From positions 56,325 through 120,324 of the forward strand of contig CAWJJN010000003.1 in NCBI GenBank assembly GCA_963843205.1: a stretch of DNA of 64,000 bases, given 5' to 3'. Below the pieces are notes generated by a model that saw nothing but the letters and a program-made list of their open reading frames with translations, was not told where the DNA came from and did no database searches. Both the position numbers and the translations under genes were made by a program. Below, piece by piece: positions 14,510 through 45,888 of this stretch. Numbering within the stretch: position 1 is the stretch's first letter; every line of letters begins with the position of its first letter. The DNA comes from an uncultured Candidatus Saccharibacteria bacterium. Its GTDB lineage: Bacteria > Patescibacteriota > Saccharimonadia > Saccharimonadales > UBA4665.

Positions 14510-14537
14510 AAGAGGTGTCATTGCGGCACCTCTTTTT
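14510..14537 (+). terminator. Intrinsic terminator after rpsI
   Basis: AAGAGGTGTC-ATTGC-GGCACCTCTT followed by TTT. Confidence 0.8.
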
Positions 14538-14550
14538 GTATGATCTATAT

Positions 14551-15507
14551 ATGAGCAAAACACCTGAGCAAAAATTAGCAGCCAAACGTCAGGCGTGGCT
14601 TGAGCGGACAATGGGCGCGCTCAACCTGGACCGGGAAACTGCGCTAGACCTACTCAAAGTCGCGCGTCGTCAAGGACTTCGTATAAATACGCTGCTAGCA
14701 GATCAAAATACGGTACCGCAGCTTACGGCCATTGGCTGGGAAGGCGAGCCGTTTGACTGGCTAGCTGACTGTTACTCGATTGACAAAGGCGGGGAGGCGG
14801 TTAGGGACAGCGCATTGGTGGGAGACGGCAAAGTGTATATCCAAAGTCCGGCTAGCTGGTTGCCCGTCCTGGCTCTAGACCCGAAAGGCGGCGAAAACAT
14901 ACTGGATATCTGCGCAGCCCCTGGAGGCAAGACAAGCCACATAGCAGCTCTGGCTGGCAACCAGGCCCATATAACAGCCAATGATAACTCCAGGCCGCGT
15001 CTGGCAAAGCTGCGCGCCAACATGCAGCGACTTGGCGTGGAGAATGTCGACTACACTCTATACGATGCGACGCAGCTGGCCCGTAGGCTCAGGGGCAGGG
15101 AGTTCGACAAGATTTTACTAGATGCACCGTGCAGCGGCGAGGGCATGATGCGCTATGACCGTGATCAAGATTTTGCGACATGGTCTGTGGCTCATATCAA
15201 GAGGTTGCAACAGCTCCAAAAGAAGATCCTGAATCAATCTTGGCCGCTATTGAAACCCGGAGGAATATTAGTATACAGCACATGCACTATGGCTCCCGAA
15301 GAAAACGAGGCCGTGATTAATTACATACTGCGATCTCACGACGATGCCAGCATAGTGCCGTTAAATCTGAAGCTGCCTAACCGTGTGCCTGCCGTTCAAG
15401 TCTGGAACGACAAGACGTACACTAACGACTTGCAGGGCTGTATTCGCCTCAAGCCCAGCGATAAAATTGAAGCCTTTTTTGTCTGCAAACTGAAAAAACT
15501 TGCATAA
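14551..15507 (+). CDS. RsmB/RsmF (NOL1/NOP2) RNA m5C methyltransferase
   Basis: ILDICAAPGGKT, ILLDAPCSGEG, LVYSTCTMAPEENE. Confidence 0.93.
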   Translation: MSKTPEQKLAAKRQAWLERTMGALNLDRETALDLLKVARRQGLRINTLLADQNTVPQLTAIGWEGEPFDWLADCYSIDKGGEAVRDSALVGDGKVYIQSPASWLPVLALDPKGGENILDICAAPGGKTSHIAALAGNQAHITANDNSRPRLAKLRANMQRLGVENVDYTLYDATQLARRLRGREFDKILLDAPCSGEGMMRYDRDQDFATWSVAHIKRLQQLQKKILNQSWPLLKPGGILVYSTCTMAPEENEAVINYILRSHDDASIVPLNLKLPNRVPAVQVWNDKTYTNDLQGCIRLKPSDKIEAFFVCKLKKLA

Positions 15508-15535
15508 ATATAAAACTCTGCTAAATTAGAATACG

Positions 15536-15610
15536 ATGAACGGACAGTTTTTTGGTTATTGGTTTACCAACCCGCAAACGGCGGTCTGTTCTTTACGTTC
15601 TAAAAAATAA
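15536..15610 (+). CDS. Aromatic-amino-acid attenuator leader peptide (24 aa)
   Basis: MNGQFFGYWFTNPQTAVCSLRSKK*; F-F-G-Y-W-F cluster directly upstream of the terminator and DAHP synthase. Confidence 0.8.
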   Translation: MNGQFFGYWFTNPQTAVCSLRSKK

Positions 15611-15632
15611 TTAGATAACAAGCAAACAGCAT

Positions 15633-15660
15633 AACCGCCGAAAGGCGGTTTTTTGCTTTT
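15633..15660 (+). terminator. Attenuator terminator hairpin
   Basis: AACCGCC-GAAA-GGCGGTT + TTTTGCTTTT; 5' arm can alternatively pair with leader CGGCGGT/CTGTT. Confidence 0.85.
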
Positions 15661-15674
15661 AAAGGAGAACTAAT

Positions 15675-16875
15675 ATGTTGCAAACAGCAGAGCTCGTCCG
15701 TTGTCAGACAGCTGAAGAAGTTGTCTCTAACCTCCCGGGCGGAGGCTACTCAGAGCATTACCAGCCCACATACCCCGACACAAATGCGCTGGTTGAAGCC
15801 GTGAGTGATGTGCAATCAACCGGGAAGGTAACAACACCGGAGCAGGTCCAAGACCTGCGTGCACAATTTGCCGATATTGGCAGCGGTAAGGTCAACCGGC
15901 CGATAACTATCACCGGCCGGTGCGCCGAGCCGGTAAATGCCAGACCGCCAATAGAAAGTTTGGTAGATGAGAACTCTGGTCAATATAGAATCTGTTGCCT
16001 GTTCCGGGCTAAAGTCAGCACTCGTGATACTGCGTGACCGTGGGCAAAATACAAAGCCCAGAACCGCAGAACTGTGCGGATTACCCGACGGCAGAACCGT
16101 CTCCTCATACATGGGCGACGCTGTTAATGGAGTAAACCCGGAAGACAGGACGCCTGACCCCCGCCGGATGGTAGCCGCTGCCGCACAGGCCAGGGCTCTG
16201 GAGGTCGGGCTTACAGCGCGCGTCGGGCATCATGTGCCTGCGGCGCACGAGGCATTATTGATCCCTTACGAGCAAGGCTCGATGTGCGTCGACACGACAA
16301 CCGGTAAAAAGTATTTATTGTCTGCCGATCTCCCCTGGATCGGCGTACGCACCAACGCGCCCGACTGCGCTCAAGTCGAGATGCTGACTGGCATAGAGAA
16401 TCCTGTCGGTATCAAGATCGGGCCGAACTCTGACGCAGAGCATATCAGACAGCTAGCGGAAAAGCTCAATCCCGATAATGAAGCCGGCAAGCTGGTCTTC
16501 ATGATACGAGTCGGTGCCGACAGAGAAGCCATGGACCGCATTCTTGGCGCTATAAAGCTATATGCCCCCAACTCAATACATATGTACGATATCCACGGCA
16601 GCACCGTCTCAGGGGCGAACGGCGTCAAAATACGGGCCGCGGACACCATTGCCGAGCATGTAAACCTGCTGTCTGAAGCCTGTGAGGGCCACGGCTTAAA
16701 ACTACACGGAGTGCACTTGGAGACTACGGGTGACAGTTCTGTTACAGAATGCGTTGATGAGGCCGGCCAGATGCCAGGAAACAAAAGCCTTGTAGACCCC
16801 CAACTCAATCCGCGGCAAACAACAAATGTTTTGAATGCTGTCGCCCCATGCTTAACTAAAGGAACGTTACCTTAA
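15675..16875 (+). CDS. Type II DAHP synthase (~399 aa; one +1 frameshift near 15972)
   Basis: TGRCAE, RGQNTKPRT, HEALLIPYE, WIGVRT, NPVGIKIGP, GVHLETTG..VTEC, DPQLN; span 1201 nt = 3n+1. Confidence 0.88.
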
Positions 16876-16891
16876 GCAGGCAAAACATGAA

Positions 16892-18220
16892 ATGGAACAA
16901 GCTACAGAGCTAAATATCAGCGACCTAAGTGACGCCGTATCCGGAATTATCGGCCTATTACCCATAGACACGGCTATGTCTGCGGCCGGACAGCTAAGCT
17001 CAAGCCTGGCAATTCTGCCAGAGGAAGCACCCAAAGGGCAGGCGCTACAGGACATTCATGAGACCGTAGCACTTGCTGCAAACCGCTTGAATACGGCAGC
17101 TGATCATCTGTCGTCTGCCGCCGGCGGAATGGCAGCCTACATCACTGCTATACGCGGCGGCGAAGTCGCGGCAGAAAAAACAGGCGCACATCGTGCTATG
17201 CCAAGAAATGAACGCTATAGCCACCTAAGTCCGGCGCAAAGGCTAAATCTCGCCCGCCTAAGCGCGTTCACAAGCACATTAAATATATATGCAGAAGGCG
17301 ACAAAGTCTGCCCGGGCATGCACATTGACGAACGCACAGAAACTGGAGTAGTGCTTGACGACCCTCAGATGCAAGCACGTTATGACAACTGGCTGGCTGA
17401 GCATGACAACGACCCTGGGGTAGCCGAGCGCGAGAGGCTCTTTGGCGCTTTTGACGAGTTCGCTGACATAGCCCAACAGCTGCGTGAATTCATGAGCAGC
17501 GGTATTCTGCGCGCCGACCTACAGGGCAGCATTGAGGTACTCGGCAACGGCCAGCTGGCTATGGCGTTCTTGTACAGGCACGGTGATGGCACGCGTCACG
17601 CTATACGTCTGTTACACGGCGAAAACTCGCTGTTGGGCAGGCCGCTGCAAGTCCAAACCTACCTTGACGGGCTAACGGGGGTTGACCACCCTCGCCTTGA
17701 GAAACTTCATTCCGCAACCTATGACTACGGCGGAGCGACAGTATCACGATATCACCCTGGCAAGCCTGTAGTATCCAGGACTATCAACGAGCTGCAACAC
17801 GTAACAACACAGCAAGTAGACGATCTGGCTGACGCAGTACGTTATGCGCACTCACAAGGAGTCAGCCTGGACCTTGAGGGTGAGGAGGCCGGGAATTTGC
17901 TATACGACCCGGCAGAGGGCTTTAGTGTTATCGACTTCAATCGATTCCACCCCGACTTCTACCGGCAGCCGAGCCTGGTCAAAGAAATGTCCCGGGTCTG
18001 CGCCCGTATTCTTGGCGTCAGACTGTCCAATCCCGACCCTTTCCCGGGCATGGAACCGGCAGAACTTCGCAGCCGCCTCGGCATCGTCAACCGCATCCTA
18101 GAAACAGCGGATTACGATCTGTATTGGGACATGCGCCAGTGTTTAACGCGCTTCAACTACTCCTGGGACAGACATCTGATCAGACGAAGGCCAGGGCTAA
18201 GCGGCCACAGCCTAGCCTAA
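16892..18220 (+). CDS. Helical module + protein-kinase-like domain
   Basis: NISDLSDAV..LLPID...AAYITAIRG; later LGNGQLA, HSQGVSLDL..GNLL, VIDF. Confidence 0.7.
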   Translation: MEQATELNISDLSDAVSGIIGLLPIDTAMSAAGQLSSSLAILPEEAPKGQALQDIHETVALAANRLNTAADHLSSAAGGMAAYITAIRGGEVAAEKTGAHRAMPRNERYSHLSPAQRLNLARLSAFTSTLNIYAEGDKVCPGMHIDERTETGVVLDDPQMQARYDNWLAEHDNDPGVAERERLFGAFDEFADIAQQLREFMSSGILRADLQGSIEVLGNGQLAMAFLYRHGDGTRHAIRLLHGENSLLGRPLQVQTYLDGLTGVDHPRLEKLHSATYDYGGATVSRYHPGKPVVSRTINELQHVTTQQVDDLADAVRYAHSQGVSLDLEGEEAGNLLYDPAEGFSVIDFNRFHPDFYRQPSLVKEMSRVCARILGVRLSNPDPFPGMEPAELRSRLGIVNRILETADYDLYWDMRQCLTRFNYSWDRHLIRRRPGLSGHSLA

Positions 18221-18280
18221 TGTGCTGGCAGCCCGCTGCCAAACTTGAACAATAACCTAAAATACAGGATACTATAACTA

Positions 18281-19309
18281 ATGAAACCAGTAGTTTTAAC
18301 CGGCTTGCGGGCCAACAACGATCTGCACATCGGCAATTACCTCGGCGCATTGCTGCCGATGGTCGACATGGCTAGGAAGCACGCCGGTAAATATCAGATA
18401 AATTTGTTTATACCGGACCTGCATAGCTTCACCACGCCCATAGATCATTCGCAGCTCATGGCCCAGACCATGCAGAATCTGCGTGTTTACGCGGCGGCCG
18501 GTCTGCCATTTGATCACGATGACGTCTATGTATACAGACAAAGCTACATACCGGCGCACTCCGAGCTGACCTGGATTCTGGATTGCTTTACCGGCTTCGG
18601 TGAGATGTCCCGCATGATCCAGTTCAAAGACAAATCATCAAAGATGCAGGAAGACAGAATTAGCATCGGGTTGTTTAACTATCCTGTTTTGATGGCTTCG
18701 GATATTTTACTGTACGGCGCAAGCTACGTGCCGGTAGGCGAGGACCAGACGCAGCACGTGGAGTTCACTCGCGACATCGGCAACCGCATGAACGCCAAAT
18801 TCGGTGAATTATTTACAGTGCCGTTGCCAGTACCTAAACAGCACGAATTCTTCGGCAAGGACCAAGGCCTGCGCATCAAAGACCTGGCTGACCCGACCAA
18901 AAAGATGAGCAAAAGCGATGAAACCGGCAAAGGAGTGATATTCCTAACTGACAGCCCGGAGGCAGCCTCCAAGAAAATCATGAGTGCAACCACCGACAGC
19001 TTCGGCGAAATCCGGGGCGACTGCAAAGACCGGCCCGGTATCTCCAACTTGCTGCAAATTCTGGCACTTCTTACAGACCGCAGCCAGAACGAAGTTCTTG
19101 CCGAGTGGGAAGGTAAAAACTCTTACGGTGATCTTAAAAAGGCCGCAGCCGAGGCAACCGGCAAGTTCCTGACTGACTTCCAAGCGCGAATGGCCCAAGT
19201 TGACGACAACCAGTTAATCGCCAGACTGGAAGCAAGCGAAGCAGCCATGAATATAGCAGCAAGCGAAACCCTGCTTAAAGTCCAAGGGGCAGTCGGGCTG
19301 CGCCCGTAA
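18281..19309 (+). CDS. trpS: Tryptophan--tRNA ligase
   Basis: HIGN, YPVLMASDILLY, VPVGEDQTQH, KKMSKS. Confidence 0.98.
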   Translation: MKPVVLTGLRANNDLHIGNYLGALLPMVDMARKHAGKYQINLFIPDLHSFTTPIDHSQLMAQTMQNLRVYAAAGLPFDHDDVYVYRQSYIPAHSELTWILDCFTGFGEMSRMIQFKDKSSKMQEDRISIGLFNYPVLMASDILLYGASYVPVGEDQTQHVEFTRDIGNRMNAKFGELFTVPLPVPKQHEFFGKDQGLRIKDLADPTKKMSKSDETGKGVIFLTDSPEAASKKIMSATTDSFGEIRGDCKDRPGISNLLQILALLTDRSQNEVLAEWEGKNSYGDLKKAAAEATGKFLTDFQARMAQVDDNQLIARLEASEAAMNIAASETLLKVQGAVGLRP

Positions 19310-21775: not shown

Positions 21776-21851
21776 GCCGACATAGCTCAGTGGCCAGAGC
21801 GGCTGTTTTGTAAACAGCGGGTCGTGGGTTCGAATCCCTCTGTCGGCTCCA
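21776..21851 (+). tRNA. tRNA-Thr (TGT)
   Basis: GCCGACA acceptor, GCTGT-TTTGTAA-ACAGC anticodon arm, GTTCGAATC, CCA end. Confidence 0.97.
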
Positions 21852-21897: not shown

Positions 21898-21982
21898 GCA
21901 GGGATAGTGAAGCGGTCAAACACGGGTGACTGTAAATCATCTGGCTCAGCCTTCGGGGGTTCGAATCCCTCTCCCTGCACCA
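21898..21982 (+). tRNA. tRNA-Tyr (GTA)
   Basis: GCAGGGA acceptor, CTGTAAA loop, long variable arm, GTTCGAATC, CCA end. Confidence 0.97.
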
Positions 21983-27334: not shown

Positions 27335-29271
27335 TTACTCTATGTGAGCGATATCAAGGGCGGTATTAATAAATTCGGCGTGACTCCAAACCAAAGGCGT
27401 TACGCTAATGGCGTAGCCGGTATCCGGGTCAAACTGCTCGCTCATCATACCGCTTTGCAGCGCTCTGGCTGAGGCCCAGTTCAGCAGGTCTGTGGCTTGG
27501 TCCTTCTGGCCGGCAGTATTAAAGTATTGGGCCAACCATAGGGTACAGACTATCCAGGGGTTGCCTTGGTAATGTTGCTTGGCAAGGAAATAGTTATCTC
27601 CCGGGTAGCGGATTACGCCGCCGATCGGGCTGGTGCCGGAAAGCCGTTGTTTTACCGCTTCAAAAGTTCCGCTGACGCGCGGGTCGCTAAGCGGTAATTG
27701 AGCGAACATCAGCGGGCCGTAGAGGTTGGAGATATCCAGGGTGTCATCGTAGGACAAGCTGCCATTGTCTTGCAACAAAAAGCCTTTGCGGAAATATCCG
27801 TCAGGATGGTAGAGCGCCTGCAAACCCTCGCGCATTCGTTCGGCGGCCTTCTTCCAGCGCACGGCATCGTCCGGGTGCTTGGCGACCTTGGCGAGCTCGA
27901 CAGCGGTTTCCAGAGCGGCAATGACAACGCAAACCGTGTAGGTTGAGGTCAGGAACTTCTGCTCCCAAAGGTCATAACTGGCGTGCGGCAGGCCGGTTAC
28001 ATCGTCCACGTATCCGGTCATGAACGAAGCGCAGGGAGTGATGAAGTCCTCATAGAAATTTTCTACAAAGGTGCTGTCGCTGCTGGCACGGTAGTATTCG
28101 CCAATCATGAACACTACCAGCGCGGTTTCGTCCTCCTGGATAGCCAGCTCTTTGTGGCGGCCGTGCAGCAAGGGGTGCCAGGTGCTGCCAACGGCCCGGT
28201 CGGGCTGGAACTTGTGGGCCAAATATCCGTCGCGGTGCATGATGCTGCGCGCGAACTCAAAGAAATTGCGGGCTTCTTCGTATATGCCCAGTCTTATCAG
28301 GGGCCAAACCGCATAGGCGGCATCCCGCGGCCAGCAATAGCAATAATAATCGCGCCCAAAGTTAAAGATGCTGGAATCGCCGCTGGCCAGTATGGAGCCG
28401 CGGTCGTCGCAGTGCGCCTTAATGACCAGCAGGCTTTTTTGAGCCTCAATGCGCGTGGCATCCGGCAGCTGAGCCAATTTTTTCTTGGCAGGCTCAAGCC
28501 ACTTTTGCCAAGACTTCGCGGGCTTTTTTGATGCGGTCATCAATAGAATAATATTTGATGTGGGTGTGAATCACCTGGGCGTCCGACTGGCTGTCGGCAG
28601 CTATCACCCAGTAGTCCACGCGAAGTTTATTCTGCGGACCGACTAGCTTGCGAAAGCGCAGCACGCTGTCTACGCCGCCGTGCTCAACGGCGTTGCCGGA
28701 TAATTCGCCGTCTTCAGCGTCACGGAACGTTTCCGGCCTTGCCCTCAATCCCGTAATTGCCGACTGCAAACTGGTCAAAGTCACCGTTGTCCGGCTGCCT
28801 GCCGGCAATCAGCAAACAGCAGCGCCCCTTATAATCCAATATATAATTGTCGTCCGGAACGTAAAGGGAAGTATCGGCCCGGCCGGCGCGCGAGATCTGG
28901 AATACCTGGTGCATAAACAAACGGATATCACGGTCATGATCGACATCGTTGGTTATCTCAATTCTGCGTATCAGCGCGTTGTAGTCAGGGTCGACGAAAT
29001 CCCGGCACTGAAGAGTTACGTTCAGCTGTGAGGAGTGCATCTTGACGTCACTTATTAGGGCATCCTCTTCAAAGCTGATGGTCGTCTCCCACGAGCCGTC
29101 GCCGATCCAGCTAAAAACGCCGTCAACCCAAACGCCTATTTTGTGCTGAGAGTTACGAGCATTGGTCAGGTTGTCCAGGCCGACATATGGATAGTAAAAA
29201 TCGTGCACTAAACCGTTTTCGTCCAGGCCAACGAATAGCTGACCGTTACTAAGTACTACTGGTCTGCCCAT
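27335..29271 (-). CDS. GH15 glucoamylase/trehalase-like glycoside hydrolase (two +1 frameshifts near 28728 and 28527)
   Basis: MGRPVVLSNG, YCWPRDAAY, YDLWE, GGVIRYPGDNY, SEQFDP, PLVWSHAEF; span 1937 = 3n+2. Confidence 0.9.
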
Positions 29272-29288
29272 TTAGCGGTACCTCAGAT

Positions 29289-30497
29289 TCATAAGTTCAC
29301 ACCCTGCAGCGATAAGCGGTAGCGCAGATCGTGGTAGGCGTTCATGAAGGCAATAAATCCGTCATAGGGATTGCTGTAAGGGCTGAAGTAGGCATGAATG
29401 TCACCGTCGTTGAACCATTTGGTACACATGTAATAGAAGTGGTCGGAGGCCTGCAGCTTGCGCCAGTCTTCGATTAGCGAAAGATCACCGGTGCCCTTGA
29501 TGGCGTCTTCAAGCCCATACAATGAATTGATAGCCGTAGACTGCATACTGTTGCCCAGCCAGGCGCTGAGATCGCGCTCAGTGTCGGCCCAGGTCACTGT
29601 ATACGGCACGTCAACCTGATCTACCGGCTGGAAGGTGTCGATGGCCTCAGAAACGGTCATGAATGTATTGCCCGGCTTTTTGAGCCACTGGCTCGGCAAG
29701 TGCTCCAGGAAGTCGAAAATTCCGAACTCGTCCCATTGGTGCTCGCCGAATGTCTCGTAGTCCATAAACAGGTCAAAGTTTGTGGCATCGCCGCTTTCAT
29801 TGAGCCAGTGCGTGAATTTATCGGCGGTCAGAGGCCAGCCCGCCCAGTTATGATCGCCAAAGCGGAAGGCAATGTCATCGCTCAGCTTATAGTTCTTCAT
29901 CAGCAGCCGGATGTTTTCGGTATAAGCCGGGCGATAGACAAAGTTCGGGCTGCGCCAGCCTAATATCGGGTCCCAGCCTTCGGCCAGGATGCCTTTGTAG
30001 CCGGCCTTATCCGCCCAGTAAGCCAGGTCGTTATTGTAGGCCAGCTCGGTGTTGCGCAGAACCTTGGGCGTTTGCCCGAACAGTTCCTGGACCTTTTGGG
30101 TGTGCATCTTGATCTGCGCTTCAAATTCGTTCCTGGAATAGAAGAATGACAGGCTGTGATGGTATGTTTCGCCGACTATTTCGACGCGCCCGGTATCAAC
30201 CAGGTCTTTGAACGATTGAAGAGCATCAGGCGCCCAGGCCTGCATCTGGTCAAGGACCGTACCGGTAATACTTAAGGACAGCTTGAATTCCGGATGATCG
30301 TTCAATAGCTTCAGCAAGCGCCGGTTAGTCGGCCGGTACGACTTTTCGGCCACCTTGTGCATAACGCGTTCGTTGCTGGTCTGGGCGTCGTAAGGGGAGT
30401 CAAAATAATTATGGTCAACGCCTATGTCAAAGATGCTGTAGTGACGCACTCTGTACGGTTGGTGAACGTGCAAGTAAAGTACTATAGCTTTGGTCAT
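29289..30497 (-). CDS. GH57 glycoside hydrolase (alpha-amylase-like)
   Basis: LHVHQPYR, ETYHH, RNTEL, DYETFGEHQ, LQASDHFYYM. Confidence 0.95.
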   Translation of the reverse strand: MTKAIVLYLHVHQPYRVRHYSIFDIGVDHNYFDSPYDAQTSNERVMHKVAEKSYRPTNRRLLKLLNDHPEFKLSLSITGTVLDQMQAWAPDALQSFKDLVDTGRVEIVGETYHHSLSFFYSRNEFEAQIKMHTQKVQELFGQTPKVLRNTELAYNNDLAYWADKAGYKGILAEGWDPILGWRSPNFVYRPAYTENIRLLMKNYKLSDDIAFRFGDHNWAGWPLTADKFTHWLNESGDATNFDLFMDYETFGEHQWDEFGIFDFLEHLPSQWLKKPGNTFMTVSEAIDTFQPVDQVDVPYTVTWADTERDLSAWLGNSMQSTAINSLYGLEDAIKGTGDLSLIEDWRKLQASDHFYYMCTKWFNDGDIHAYFSPYSNPYDGFIAFMNAYHDLRYRLSLQGVNL

Positions 30498-31699
30498 ACG
30501 GTCGCTCCTTGAGTTTGGTGTATATATACGTCCCAGAGTTTATCTGCTGAATCATCCCAGCTGCGGCTGGCGTATTCGCGGTAAGCATTTGCATGCAGCT
30601 CGTCGCGCAGGGCGTCGTTTTGGACTACTCCGACTATCTTGTTGGCCATTTCGTTAATGTCCCAAAAATCAACTTTCAGGCAGTTATGAATGACTTCGGA
30701 CGCGCCGGACTGCTTGCTGACCAGGACGGGCGTTCCGTAGCCGATAGCCTCCAGGGCCACTAACCCGAACGGCTCGGATATGGAGGGCATAACAAACAAA
30801 TCCGCGACTGTGTAAGCGTCGCGGTAGGCTTTGCCCCGCTGGAAACCGGCAAAAAACACATTTGCGCCGATGCCCAGGTCGGCGGCCGTCTCTATGAGCT
30901 CGCGTTTTTGTTCGCCGTCGCCCACGAACAACAAAAAGGTCTTAGGTGCCCGCTGCAATACTTCTTTGAAGGCGTGCAGTAAGTTTGGCAAACCCTTTTG
31001 GATTGTCAGGCGGCCGACGCTCGAAACCACCCGATAGCCAAACTGTTTTGTATGTTCAAGGTAGCGGTAAATGTTGTCGCCGTCAGCCGGCTCTAAACTC
31101 TGCGGGTCAAAATGGTTGTGAACGACTTCGATTTTGTCCTCGGGTATGCCGTATTCGCGCATGATGGTTTGCTTGGTATTGTTACTGATGGCAACGACAC
31201 GGTCGGCCAGGCTCAGGGCCAGAGATTCGATTTCGCGCACATAAGGGCTGCCGCCAAAGGGACGGCCGGCGCGGTCTGATTCAACGGAATGTATGTGGAT
31301 GACCAGAGGTTTTCCGGTAATCATCTTGGCGCGTATTGCCGCCCGGCAGGTTAGCCAGTCGTGGGCGTGGATAACATCGAATTCGGCCAGTTTGACTATC
31401 CGGCCGACCAACTCTTCGTAGGAGGCCAGCACTCCGCCCAGGGCGTGCTCGGAGTTCGGGCCGTCGCCCGGCGCTACAGGGCCGTAGGCGCGGGCCTTGG
31501 CCATAACGGTTTCAGCATCATCTGCGAACACCGAGTTAATACGCATGAAATCGATATGAGAATGGTCGGCGGTGTAGGGAAGGACAAACTCGATGTCTGC
31601 GCCTTTTTTGGACAGGGCTTTGCAGAGCTGATAACAGGCTACGCCAAGTCCACCGCTGTTATGGGGAGGTAACTCCCATCCTAACATCAAGATTCGCAT
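30494..31699 (-). CDS. GT4 glycosyltransferase
   Basis: WELPPHNSGGLG, HAHDW, VMPSISEPFGLVALEA. Confidence 0.95.
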   Translation of the reverse strand: MRILMLGWELPPHNSGGLGVACYQLCKALSKKGADIEFVLPYTADHSHIDFMRINSVFADDAETVMAKARAYGPVAPGDGPNSEHALGGVLASYEELVGRIVKLAEFDVIHAHDWLTCRAAIRAKMITGKPLVIHIHSVESDRAGRPFGGSPYVREIESLALSLADRVVAISNNTKQTIMREYGIPEDKIEVVHNHFDPQSLEPADGDNIYRYLEHTKQFGYRVVSSVGRLTIQKGLPNLLHAFKEVLQRAPKTFLLFVGDGEQKRELIETAADLGIGANVFFAGFQRGKAYRDAYTVADLFVMPSISEPFGLVALEAIGYGTPVLVSKQSGASEVIHNCLKVDFWDINEMANKIVGVVQNDALRDELHANAYREYASRSWDDSADKLWDVYIHQTQGATV

Positions 31700-33180: not shown

Positions 33181-33256
33181 AGGGGAGTAGCTCAGTTGGT
33201 AGAGCACCGGTCTCCAAAACCGGGTGTCGCAGGTTCAAGTCCTGTCTCCCCTGCCA
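33181..33256 (+). tRNA. tRNA-Trp (CCA)
   Basis: AGGGGAG acceptor, CCGGT-CTCCAAA-ACCGG, GTTCAAGTC, CCA end. Confidence 0.97.
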
Positions 33257-33647: not shown

Positions 33648-34819
33648 ATGAGATTAATAAGTTTTAGCGTAAGCAACTATAAATCTTTTTTGGCCGAACA
33701 GACTATAGCTTTTGATACAAATTCAAAGGTTGACATTTTAGTTGGACCAAACGGCTCAGGTAAATCAAACTTGCTCAGAGCAATGCACTTCTACGGTAAG
33801 TTTATCAGAAACTCTACGACCTATAAGGCAAAAGATACAGGCTATGAGCCTTTCCTATTTAATGTAGGTGCTACTGAAATACAGACTGAGTTTAAGGCTG
33901 AGATGCAGACTGACAGGTCTATTTACTATTATTCATTCTCAGTTCAGCGGGGCTTCGTTAAGAGTGAGACTCTTAAGAGAAAAAAGCTTGGCAACAACGA
34001 AGTTTACAGCACGATTTTCAGTAGGTCATCCATCGATAAAAAGAGGTACGAGAAGAACGGTTTCAATGCCCCGATACTCAAATCAACACGTGATGACGCA
34101 CTTATATTGACGAAAGCTTGGGAGAACAACAATAAATACGCGCTAGAGGTGTTTGAGTGGTTGGACCACTTCAAGTTTATGTTTAGCTCTCAGCACTTTA
34201 GAGGCACCGGCACTGCCAAAAAAGTCAAGGAAAGCCCTGAATTCAAATCAAGAAAGTCCTCGACCTCTTGCAGAAAGCTGATCTTTATATCCAGGATCTT
34301 AGCGTAGCTGAAGTAGACATTCCAGAGGTAGTGATTAGTGCCTTCTCGGATGAAGTGAGATCAAAAGTAAATAAAACTACCTACGATGTCACGACAACGC
34401 ATATGGTATATGATGACAGGGGCAACATAGTGAAGGCAGCCCATCTGCCCCTAAGTGCTAAATCAACAGGCACTAGGAGGATATTTGAGTTGGCGTTTCC
34501 AATTCTCGATAGTCTTGAGAACGGAAATATCCTTTGCATTGATGAGTTTGAGGTTAACCTACATCCAAAGGAGTGCACATTCCTCGTAAGCCTTTTTAGC
34601 TCAGACAATAACAAAAAAGGCGCAAGACTGATCATCACCACGCACAATACTCAACTTCTTGATCAAGTGGGAAGAAATAGCGTTCATCTTGTAGGCAAAA
34701 ACCGCCGTGAAGAAACGATATTAGGACAAATATCTAAGAACATCAGGTCTGATGACAAACTTTTAGAGAAGAAATACAACAAGGGTCTATTTGGGGCTAA
34801 CCCAAATATCAGGGGGTAA
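33648..34819 (+). CDS. AAA_21/RloA-like ATPase (one frameshift near 34247)
   Basis: LVGPNGSGKSNLL, STGTRRIF, IDEFEVNLHP, LIITTHN, LEKKYNKGLFGANP. Confidence 0.85.
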
Positions 34820-34826
34820 TGGCGCA

Positions 34827-35507
34827 ATGTTGTTTGTGCTGGTATGTACCGAAGGAGATGTATCCGAACCCGCCTGTATTGATGAACTACACAAGGCTCT
34901 TAAAGGCCAGCGTCCGCAGTCTGGTGATACATTTGTAGAAATCGTGACTATACCGCTAGGCGGAAACCAAGGTCATAAAAAGATTATCTCTAAGGCTGAG
35001 CATGAGATAGAGTTGGCATCCCAAGATTCCGAACGACTCATCTCTTTTGCTGAAGAAGATGACGAAAGGCAGAAATGGCTCATCTGCGATCACGACAAAA
35101 TGGACCAAGCCGGCATAGTCTTGCAAGATTTTCGAAAGCAAGTAGCCGCCGCCGGTTACACACTTGTAATGAATAAGCCCAACTTCGAGTTCTTTGTCGT
35201 AGCCCTGCTTAGCGGCGTTGATGCGGCCCGAGCCGTAAAACAAAAGGACTACGCGGATGTTATTGAGCGTGAGATAGGGGCATTAAACCAGCGAAACCGT
35301 GAGGAAAAAGGATTCTCAGATAATATGATGATTCCGCCGTATTCCAAGAAGAGGTACGTTTCGATTGATTTCTTCGGCAAACTCATGCACTATCATCCCG
35401 AACTTTTACATGGGCTAGCTGAAGTTGAGGCTAGTGACAGTGACAATTTTACGGATATGCCGAAACTGATAAATGCATTGAAAGCCATCTATGGGATCGA
35501 TAATTGA
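34827..35507 (+). CDS. RloB-like (TOPRIM-like) protein
   Basis: LVCTEG..SEP, WLICDHD, NKPNFEFF; follows the AAA ATPase. Confidence 0.75.
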   Translation: MLFVLVCTEGDVSEPACIDELHKALKGQRPQSGDTFVEIVTIPLGGNQGHKKIISKAEHEIELASQDSERLISFAEEDDERQKWLICDHDKMDQAGIVLQDFRKQVAAAGYTLVMNKPNFEFFVVALLSGVDAARAVKQKDYADVIEREIGALNQRNREEKGFSDNMMIPPYSKKRYVSIDFFGKLMHYHPELLHGLAEVEASDSDNFTDMPKLINALKAIYGIDN

Positions 35508-45291: not shown

Positions 45292-45888
45292 CTAGGCGTC
45301 CTTCGGTTTTGATTTACACACGTTAATCATGATAACTGCCCGGTCAAATATTGGTGAAGCGCCGTGGAAGTACTCGCACTGAATCAAGCAAATATTTAGA
45401 GGATATTTTGTCTCCTCGGTGCCTGCCGGCACCAAAAAACTCCGGAACATCTGCTTGGTTTCGCCTGGCTTTAGAATAAGCCCGTCCGATGTCGGGTCAG
45501 AAGATGCCGGCCAGAAAAACGTCTTGCTGTCGGGCATTATTATCTTGGGAAACTGCCTGTCGGTATCCGACAAAAAGCTGACCATGTCCGGGTCGGCAAA
45601 CCCTGTTCCCACCCAGGACATAACGTATAATTTAGTAATCTTGGACGAACTGGGGTTGACCACCACGACACCCTCGTTAAAGTCCTGCCCGGGCACTACA
45701 TAGGTGGAGTGGCTGACACCCCCGATGTACGGGACTGTCGTGCCCTTCAGCTTTTTGACCAGCGTCTGCGGATCGATGATCTTATGGACCAGGTCCTTTG
45801 TTTTTTCGCTGACAGCAGCCTTTTTAATCTCCTGAATTTTTTTGTCTATTTCTGCCGCTGATGGCAGCTGTTTATTCTCACTTGTCAT
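45292..45888 (-). CDS. Hypothetical protein
   Basis: 198 aa ORF with GGGGG RBS. Confidence 0.65.
   Translation of the reverse strand: MTSENKQLPSAAEIDKKIQEIKKAAVSEKTKDLVHKIIDPQTLVKKLKGTTVPYIGGVSHSTYVVPGQDFNEGVVVVNPSSSKITKLYVMSWVGTGFADPDMVSFLSDTDRQFPKIIMPDSKTFFWPASSDPTSDGLILKPGETKQMFRSFLVPAGTEETKYPLNICLIQCEYFHGASPIFDRAVIMINVCKSKPKDA

Follow-up and report, generated by a model that had tools for sequence, protein, structure and literature searches.

A 64,000-nucleotide stretch of an uncultured Candidatus Saccharibacteria genome (contig CAWJJN010000003.1, positions 56,325 to 120,324; hereafter the window) carries, upstream of a DAHP synthase (DAHPS) gene, what is most probably a ribosome-mediated, leader-peptide transcription attenuator. 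It would couple read-through into the DAHPS operon to the charging of tRNA-Phe, tRNA-Tyr and tRNA-Trp, and we put the probability of this reading at roughly 80%. The leader ORF, terminator and antiterminator that the attenuation model calls for were all found and are conserved in orthologues, which supports the reading; the region 1 partner is less uniform. The elements themselves, their mutual exclusivity, their conservation and co-variation, and their sole association with one clade of DAHPS genes are directly supported. A preliminary description of the window had proposed a leader open reading frame (ORF), a hairpin, an antiterminator, a terminator, a ribosome binding site and the DAHPS start codon in this region, and each was found where it had been placed (Table 1).

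The leader ORF stands out by its codon content. Five of the six codons from 5 to 10 (FFGYWF) are aromatic, and no other of the window's 544 ATG-initiated ORFs of 15-40 codons reaches 5/6 aromatic codons. It is also the sole short aromatic ORF in the window to combine a credible terminator with an intergenic position. A second aromatic candidate, at 45784, runs antisense to another ORF and seems spurious. The 161-nt region containing the leader folds better than all 200 shuffles (z = -3.25). Within it, region 2 (CGGCGGT/CTGTT) is complementary to AACAG (15625-15629) and ACCGCCG (15634-15640) of region 3, and the resulting antiterminator excludes the terminator by using the terminator 5′ arm. 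The Shine-Dalgarno sequence and start codon of the DAHPS gene are not sequestered by the terminator.

Folding of alternative structures, which had been suggested as a check on the preliminary description, lent it support in the window: masking part of the RNA as a stalled ribosome would do flips the predicted fold from terminator to antiterminator. In the nascent window transcript it is the 5′ end of the leader ORF that holds region 2, a 5′-proximal pairing also found in the closest leader types (L088 and L089; loci are given L numbers throughout) with one compensatory change from G-C to A-U. The CCGC/GCGG hairpin of the preliminary description is present, but it is not the most stable partner of region 2, which in the minimum free energy (MFE) folds pairs with region 1 through 15584-15591. 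For the ribosome-mask folding, a footprint from -15 to +11 nt of the A-site codon was masked and the window leader RNA refolded. Without a ribosome, the terminator form is ahead by 3.8 kcal/mol. An A site placed at F5, F6 or Y8 reverses this, giving the antiterminator a lead of 2.6 kcal/mol. At W9 the margin is about 0 kcal/mol, and with the ribosome at the stop codon the terminator leads by 7.0 kcal/mol. Once region 1 is masked, the antiterminator is the MFE structure.

From these parts a mechanism can be proposed. Transcription would begin from the promoter whose -10 element ends 8 nt before the leader AUG, and translation of the leader would probably be that of a leaderless mRNA. With charged aromatic tRNAs in good supply, the ribosome would pass codons 5-10 and region 2, and after its release regions 1 and 2 would re-pair. 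Regions 3 and 4 would then pair, and the AACCGCC/GGCGGTT hairpin with its U-tract would stop transcription 24 nt before the DAHPS start codon. When any of the aromatic tRNAs is poorly charged, the ribosome would stall at F5, F6, Y8 or W9 and cover region 1. The freed region 2 could then pair with the emerging region 3, blocking the terminator, and RNA polymerase would continue into the DAHPS gene and probably on into an orphan gene and trpS.

Table 1. Features of the attenuator and its operon in the window, and of paralogous attenuators at other loci. Positions are those of the window unless a locus is named.
Feature	Position	Strand	Description
Putative sigma-70-type promoter	15500-15505 and 15522-15527	+	-35 TTGCAT, spacer 16 nt, -10 TAAATT; from sequence and homology
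Leader peptide ORF	15536-15610	+	24 codons, MNGQFFGYWFTNPQTAVCSLRSKK
Region 1 (anti-antiterminator arm)	15538-15545	+	GAACGGAC, pairs with GUCUGUUC at 15584-15591 in MFE folds
Control codons	15548-15565	+	F5 F6 (G7) Y8 W9 F10 = TTT TTT GGT TAT TGG TTT
Small hairpin	15572-15575 and 15581-15584	+	CCGC, AAACG, GCGG; weaker local alternative to region 1
Region 2 (upstream antiterminator arm)	15579-15590	+	CGGCGGTCTGTT
Region 3	15625-15640	+	AACAG-CAT-AACCGCCG; shared by antiterminator (with region 2) and terminator (with region 4)
Intrinsic terminator	15633-15659	+	AACCGCC-GAAA-GGCGGTT at 15633-15650, then T-run TTTTGCTTTT
Shine-Dalgarno and DAHPS start codon	15661-15677	+	AAAGGAGAA; GGAG 15664-15667, ATG 15675
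Class II (short, type IIB-like) DAHP synthase gene	15675-16875	+	split: 15675-16037 and 15967-16875
Orphan 442-aa gene between DAHPS and trpS	16892-18220	+	no terminator precedes
trpS (tryptophan--tRNA ligase)	18281-19309	+	TIGR00233, 284.8 bits against a cut-off of 176.75
Paralogous attenuator, WY codons	L001 5175-5322		before an unknown 301-aa gene, a racemase-like gene and trpS
Paralogous attenuator, WW codons	L005 7910-8037		before a GNAT-like gene
Two tandem F/Y-only leaders	L168 15208-15496	-	before a Hydrolase_3 and chorismate mutase operon

The arrangement is not peculiar to the window. Clade loci were gathered from genome contigs, metagenome contigs and contigs encoding eight homologues, giving 23 distinct DAHPS loci with upstream DNA, 19 of which make up the detailed tables and the alignment A2. 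In all 23, a promoter-like site is followed by a 21-28-codon ORF that holds an aromatic run, has intact start and stop codons and contains a GGCGG-type segment; after its stop codon come a terminator and then the DAHPS start. In the 19 tabulated loci the terminator lies 17-27 nt after the leader stop, and the DAHPS start, preceded by a Shine-Dalgarno sequence, lies 23-57 nt past the terminator. This layout is independent of the upstream gene, which may be rpsI or encode a methyltransferase, an ABC transporter, a GNAT protein, a prephenate dehydratase (PDT) or a peptidase. The comparison of orthologous upstream regions for aromatic codons and covariation, also suggested beforehand, came out in favour of the attenuator, as the aromatic run is kept in 23/23 loci and the antiterminator arms co-vary.

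Among the 19 aromatic runs, F is present in all, Y in 18 and W in 17, a spread that fits a leader reading all three aromatic tRNAs. The block TGG-TTT-ACC is the most conserved of alignment A2. Control codons across the loci mostly end in U (TTT 35 against TTC 7; TAT 16 against TAC 3), whereas the long genes of the window prefer TTC and TAC; slower wobble decoding or constraints of RNA structure could account for this. A covariance model (R1) built from the 19 leaders scores the window at 85.7 bits. About 140 class II DAHPS loci of other origin (Actinomycetes, Pseudomonas and others) gave no comparable leader in a motif scan or with R1, and by this comparison the element is specific to the Saccharibacteria DAHPS clade. 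Acquisition of the attenuator together with the gene from actinobacterial hosts was considered and rejected: the DAHPS loci that come next in similarity, at 28-33% identity (Actinomyces, Varibaculum and others), have no aromatic leader with terminator and no R1 match, with the proviso that a terminator criterion requiring a T-run could miss high-GC attenuators.

Both helices are maintained across the clade. In the 19 sequences of A2, 90% of cells are paired in the terminator helix against at most 62% when the partners are slid, and 85% in the antiterminator helix against at most 54%. RNAalifold independently returns the terminator helix as the consensus. L094 shows a three-way compensatory change in regions 2, 3 and 4, from GGCGG/CCGCC/GGCGG to GACGG/CCGTC/GACGG, L003 is similar, and the bases flanking the core co-vary as T-A, A-T or C-G. 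Cognate duplexes of regions 2 and 3 average -17.8 kcal/mol compared with -14.8 kcal/mol for non-cognate ones, and the cognate mean was reached by 0 of 20000 permutations (p < 5e-5). Moreover, the GGCGG core falls in three reading frames across the loci (coding TAV, RGG and WR); it is therefore conserved as RNA, and the aromatic run as codons.

Conservation is also seen between close relatives. In a related strain the leader differs at 6 of 231 positions (2.6%; five bases and one extra T), compared with about 13% for the DAHPS coding sequence. All these differences are at unpaired positions, in the tail of the peptide, in the spacer or in the CAT bulge (15630-15632), the bulge holding the only cluster. 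A second strain (X1) carries C15541T, which is synonymous and retains a G-U pair in region 1. The leader thus appears to be under purifying selection. In nascent-transcript folds of all 19 leaders, the region 2 core is paired upstream, within or 5′ of the footprint of a ribosome on the aromatic codons, with a partner that varies by subgroup; depending on the locus, region 1 lies at a 5′-proximal site or in the ACC-GGC codons right after the aromatic run. Equilibrium mask folding switches in about half of the loci (the window, L088, L089, L083, L005, L090 and L082), and we treat such folding as supportive only.

A Shine-Dalgarno sequence is missing from all 19 DAHPS leaders but precedes 17/19 of the DAHPS genes themselves. 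In most tabulated loci a TTGACA/TTGCAA-like -35 element is found about 17 nt upstream of a TAnnnT -10 element. The distance from the end of the latter to the leader start codon is 7-8 nt at 13/19 DAHPS loci and at both paralogues, and at another four it is 9-11 nt; in the window the order is TTGCAT-16-TAAATT-8-ATG. This spacing implies a leaderless or near-leaderless leader mRNA. The paralogous attenuators (Table 1) extend the pattern. Those of L168 keep the same logic with different stems (GGGAG/CTCCC and GGAGG/CCTCC), and the control codons track the regulated gene, being F+Y+W at DAHPS, F/Y at chorismate mutase and WY upstream of trpS. Such a match between codon set and controlled gene argues strongly for sensing by the ribosome.

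The gene under control had been described as a DAHP synthase, and this identification holds: PF01474, the homologue alignment and PDB matches all place it in class II. The ORF from 15675 stops after 120 codons, and the second ORF is in the +1 frame. The C-terminal ORF alone matches PF01474 with 194.6 bits, above the Pfam gathering score. When the frames are joined near 15971, the protein of about 400 aa (399/400) can be aligned over its whole length with 27 homologues of similar size (about 400 aa) and has kept each of the 52 invariant columns, catalytic residues included; its best PDB DAHPS match has E = 5e-42. The TIGR01358 score is 198 against an equivalog cut-off of 614.7, and the enzyme therefore belongs to a divergent subfamily. 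It aligns in a single stretch with the 405-aa chain 6bmc, query residues 30-387 matching 16-386 of the chain. Between query positions 174 and 189 it is about 53 residues shorter than the type IIA chain 5uxm. We take 6bmc to be PhzC, and the gap presumably corresponds to the alpha2a/alpha2b insertion. Short type IIB (PhzC-like) DAH7PS enzymes lack this insertion, which forms aromatic amino-acid allosteric sites (PMC6435475). Judging from its sequence, the window DAHPS resembles this short class.

The closest known counterpart is in Corynebacterium glutamicum, where the aroR leader (Phe-Tyr-Phe) lies upstream of the DAHPS gene aroF (cg1129) (PMC4046766, PMC3890552, PMC11802643). Read-through there rises with ribosome stalling, and only Phe limitation was effective (PMC11802643, summarising Neshat et al. 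2014). The system shares with ours a mixed-aromatic leader, the regulatory logic and the target step, a DAHPS operon. However, it belongs to a different phylum, the Saccharibacteria leaders add Trp in 17/19 cases, and their target is a short class II (type IIB-like) DAHPS, usually followed by trpS. The pheL-pheA and pheM-pheST systems of Escherichia coli have a Phe-rich leader ORF, the same 1:2, 2:3 and 3:4 arrangement and an intrinsic terminator, but here the codons are mixed F/Y/W, the downstream gene is another and the leader has no Shine-Dalgarno sequence and is probably leaderless. That genes for aminoacyl-tRNA synthetases can be regulated in this way is known from pheST (PMC11802643). 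In E. coli trpL-trpEDCBA (RF00513), the classical example, stalling at the control codons places the ribosome over region 1, and 2:3 forms and prevents 3:4. That leader, however, has Trp codons only and controls the Trp branch, and the window gives no RF00513 match; its region 1 is at the control codons, whereas several Saccharibacteria loci have region 1 at the extreme 5′ end of the ORF. The T-boxes of Firmicutes (trpS and aromatic genes) share the input, tRNA charging, and the output, terminator against antiterminator, but bind uncharged tRNA by a specifier codon and the T-box sequence, span at least 200 nt and are independent of translation. No Rfam family reaches its gathering score over this region. 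The best match is RF01859 (Phe_leader), aligned over its full length with 26.2 bits against a threshold of 55 (E = 0.038), and membership of that family was rejected on this score.

Several observations weigh against the attenuator as we describe it. A generic promoter scan did not list the TTGCAT/TAAATT pair, and a scoring script ranked TAGAAT (15527-15532) as the window -10, which would put the transcription start site inside the leader ORF. None of the RNA runs searched for the locus contained it; leader translation, the transcription start site, the response to each amino acid and co-transcription of trpS are inferred from the sequence. Each single amino acid would presumably be sensed, yet the aroR precedent answered to Phe alone. 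Stalling at F10 is predicted to favour termination, by 4.2 kcal/mol. The core stems are near-invariant, which weakens formal covariation statistics, and region 1 is not homologous across the family. Equilibrium folding predicts no switching at L004, L081, L085 and L087, where the terminator is much stronger than the antiterminator; switching at such loci depends on co-transcriptional kinetics, as for classical attenuators. TATAAT/TACAAT-like boxes occur a few nt 5′ of the trpS start, with no Shine-Dalgarno sequence, in the window (18221-18280) and in the corresponding gaps of L081, L161, L162 and L082, which suggests that trpS may have its own internal promoter and leaderless mRNA besides read-through. 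Lastly, one extra base near 15971 breaks the DAHPS frame, and the attenuator in this genome may control a pseudogene.

Three other explanations were weighed. The hairpin might merely terminate the upstream gene, which encodes an RsmB/F-like methyltransferase (14515-15507), the aromatic ORF being a product of chance in a T-rich spacer. The hairpin does lie 126 nt past the methyltransferase stop codon, the intergenic region is AT-rich (36% GC) and at least 5/6 aromatic codons arise in 0.4% of shuffled T-rich intergenic regions. However, the ORF, region 2 and the terminator recur before DAHPS under differing upstream genes, and at several of these loci (L088, L089 and L162) the upstream gene has a terminator of its own, with a promoter between it and the leader. 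Regions 2 and 3 co-vary and the leader is more conserved than the flanking coding sequence, and we consider a chance origin extremely improbable. A real switch could instead be set by a factor in trans or a ligand, such as a TRAP-type protein, uncharged tRNA bound by a T-box or a metabolite, with the ORF incidental or serving another role. In Firmicutes, T-boxes or TRAP control aromatic genes and trpS; the leader here has no Shine-Dalgarno sequence, and its translation is a matter of inference. Against this, no T-box (RF00230) match was found at E up to 10 in 15300-15900, nor any riboswitch match at that limit. The element is only about 120 nt long and has no specifier-loop-like structure, and TRAP-type control was rejected as the sequence holds no GAG/UAG repeat array. 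The 5′ half conserves an aromatic ORF whose start and stop are intact in every clade locus and whose codon set shifts with the regulated gene, and the missing Shine-Dalgarno sequence is matched by a promoter geometry typical of leaderless mRNAs. Control in trans is thus very unlikely.

The remaining alternative accepts the switch but regards it as a relic here: DAHPS would be a fresh pseudogene, the orphan gene an insertion, and the switch might modulate only trpS or the orphan. The frame is intact in a related-strain contig, which has one base fewer at 15971, and in all homologues, and the 442-aa gene between DAHPS and trpS has no homologue and is so far known only in this lineage. On the other hand, substitutions between strains are mostly third-position changes both before and after the frameshift, so that the interruption must be of very recent origin unless it is an assembly error. 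The related strains (about 85-97% identical) are known from assembled contigs, and their intact frame is silent on the reality of the extra base in the window. The joined protein also retains its catalytic and invariant residues, and the leader is intact and constrained. We judge a relic unlikely, and it would concern the current use of the switch and not its nature. Leader-peptide attenuation of the DAHPS operon therefore remains our preferred explanation.

Downstream, trpS lies at most about 85 nt from the DAHPS stop, or overlaps it, in most loci having both genes, with no terminator between them, and the attenuator probably modulates trpS too. In contexts of the window type, trpS is followed by a rluD-like gene, holB and a TPR gene. 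The orphan gene is probably in the same transcript as DAHPS. Its 442-aa product has no match in Pfam, NCBIfam, PADLOC, a PDB sequence search or a search of 5.8 billion proteins. The gene is absent from all related DAHPS loci, with a copy about 85% identical in related soil strains. Of the 39 substitutions listed between these copies, 24 are at codon position 3, an excess that marks it as a real, fast-evolving gene, and a motif resembling GNLLYDP...VIDFNRF may hint at a kinase-like fold. Genes for tRNA-Tyr(GTA) (21898-21982) and tRNA-Trp(CCA) (33181-33256) lie less than 18 kb from the attenuator that would read their charging, and tRNA-Thr genes are found at 21776 and 25007.

No other shikimate genes were found among the 30 larger window ORFs scanned. 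In L005 and L167, the attenuator-controlled DAHPS gene is followed by tyrA, a chorismate mutase-PDT gene (CM-PDT, pheA) and an aminotransferase gene, and in L085, L168 and L169 DAHPS is near genes for PDT, chorismate mutase or tyrS. The lineage is therefore not devoid of aromatic amino-acid genes. The preliminary description had called such regulation unexpected in this lineage; these genes, together with the known mixed-aromatic DAHPS leader, weaken that part of its argument. A protein of about 500 aa with an Ldh_1_N or weak Shikimate_DH-like NAD-binding domain recurs beside prephenate dehydratase genes in Saccharibacteria (L085 387-1925, - strand; L168 15512-17035, - strand; L169 11497-13002, + strand), and may be an uncharacterised aromatic-pathway dehydrogenase.

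The assignment to a probable candidate phyla radiation (CPR) bacterium, made at first from the sequence alone, agrees with homology and synteny, which group the organism with metagenome-assembled genomes (MAGs) of Saccharibacteria/Saccharimonadales. The closest DAHPS proteins are only 53% identical, and the named records among them are Candidatus Saccharibacteria/Saccharimonadales MAGs. The window neighbours rpsI, trpS, the rluD-like gene, holB and the TPR gene are 50-88% identical to, and syntenic with, those MAG loci. Related strains are present in soil metagenomes. Elsewhere in the window, a GH15 - GH57 - GT4/starch-synthase-like cluster (27335-31699, - strand) is syntenic with 17078-21212 of L166, a 1.25-Mb Saccharibacteria contig, pointing to a conserved alpha-glucan metabolism. 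An ORF for an AAA_21 (AbiEii/OLD-like) ATPase adjoins an RloB-like ORF (33648-35507, + strand); the ATPase appears short or split (33648-34307 and 34268-34819), and the two are a possible defence gene pair.

Leader-peptide attenuation is textbook knowledge for Proteobacteria and is documented in Actinobacteria. The mechanism proposed here is the classical trp/phe/his type, and the finding leaves knowledge of attenuation itself unchanged; what it adds is a small new family in a lineage where attenuation had not previously been noted. A literature search of incomplete coverage found no paper on leader-peptide attenuation in CPR/Patescibacteria, and none on DAHPS or shikimate genes in Saccharibacteria. 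A broader view, which we offer tentatively and which falls a little short of an even bet, is that Saccharibacteria run an aromatic regulon through one modular family of leaderless attenuators with codons tuned to each branch: F+Y+W for DAHPS (often with trpS), F/Y for chorismate mutase, and WW or WY for Trp-linked or unknown genes. Attenuation would then be the main or only feedback at the pathway entry, because the short type IIB-like DAHPS probably has no allosteric sites, and these ultrasmall episymbionts would keep at least some aromatic synthesis and monitor the charging of all three aromatic tRNAs.

If the attenuator works as proposed, reduced-genome Saccharibacteria would retain a coupled transcription-translation control that senses tRNA charging, and DAHPS and trpS would form a conserved, probably co-regulated pair. 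The element would serve as a compact marker, easily recognised with model R1, by which regulation and small ORFs could be annotated in these genomes. Soil and rhizosphere members would keep and regulate DAHPS, tyrA, CM-PDT and chorismate mutase, which would refine the view of these bacteria as scavengers only.

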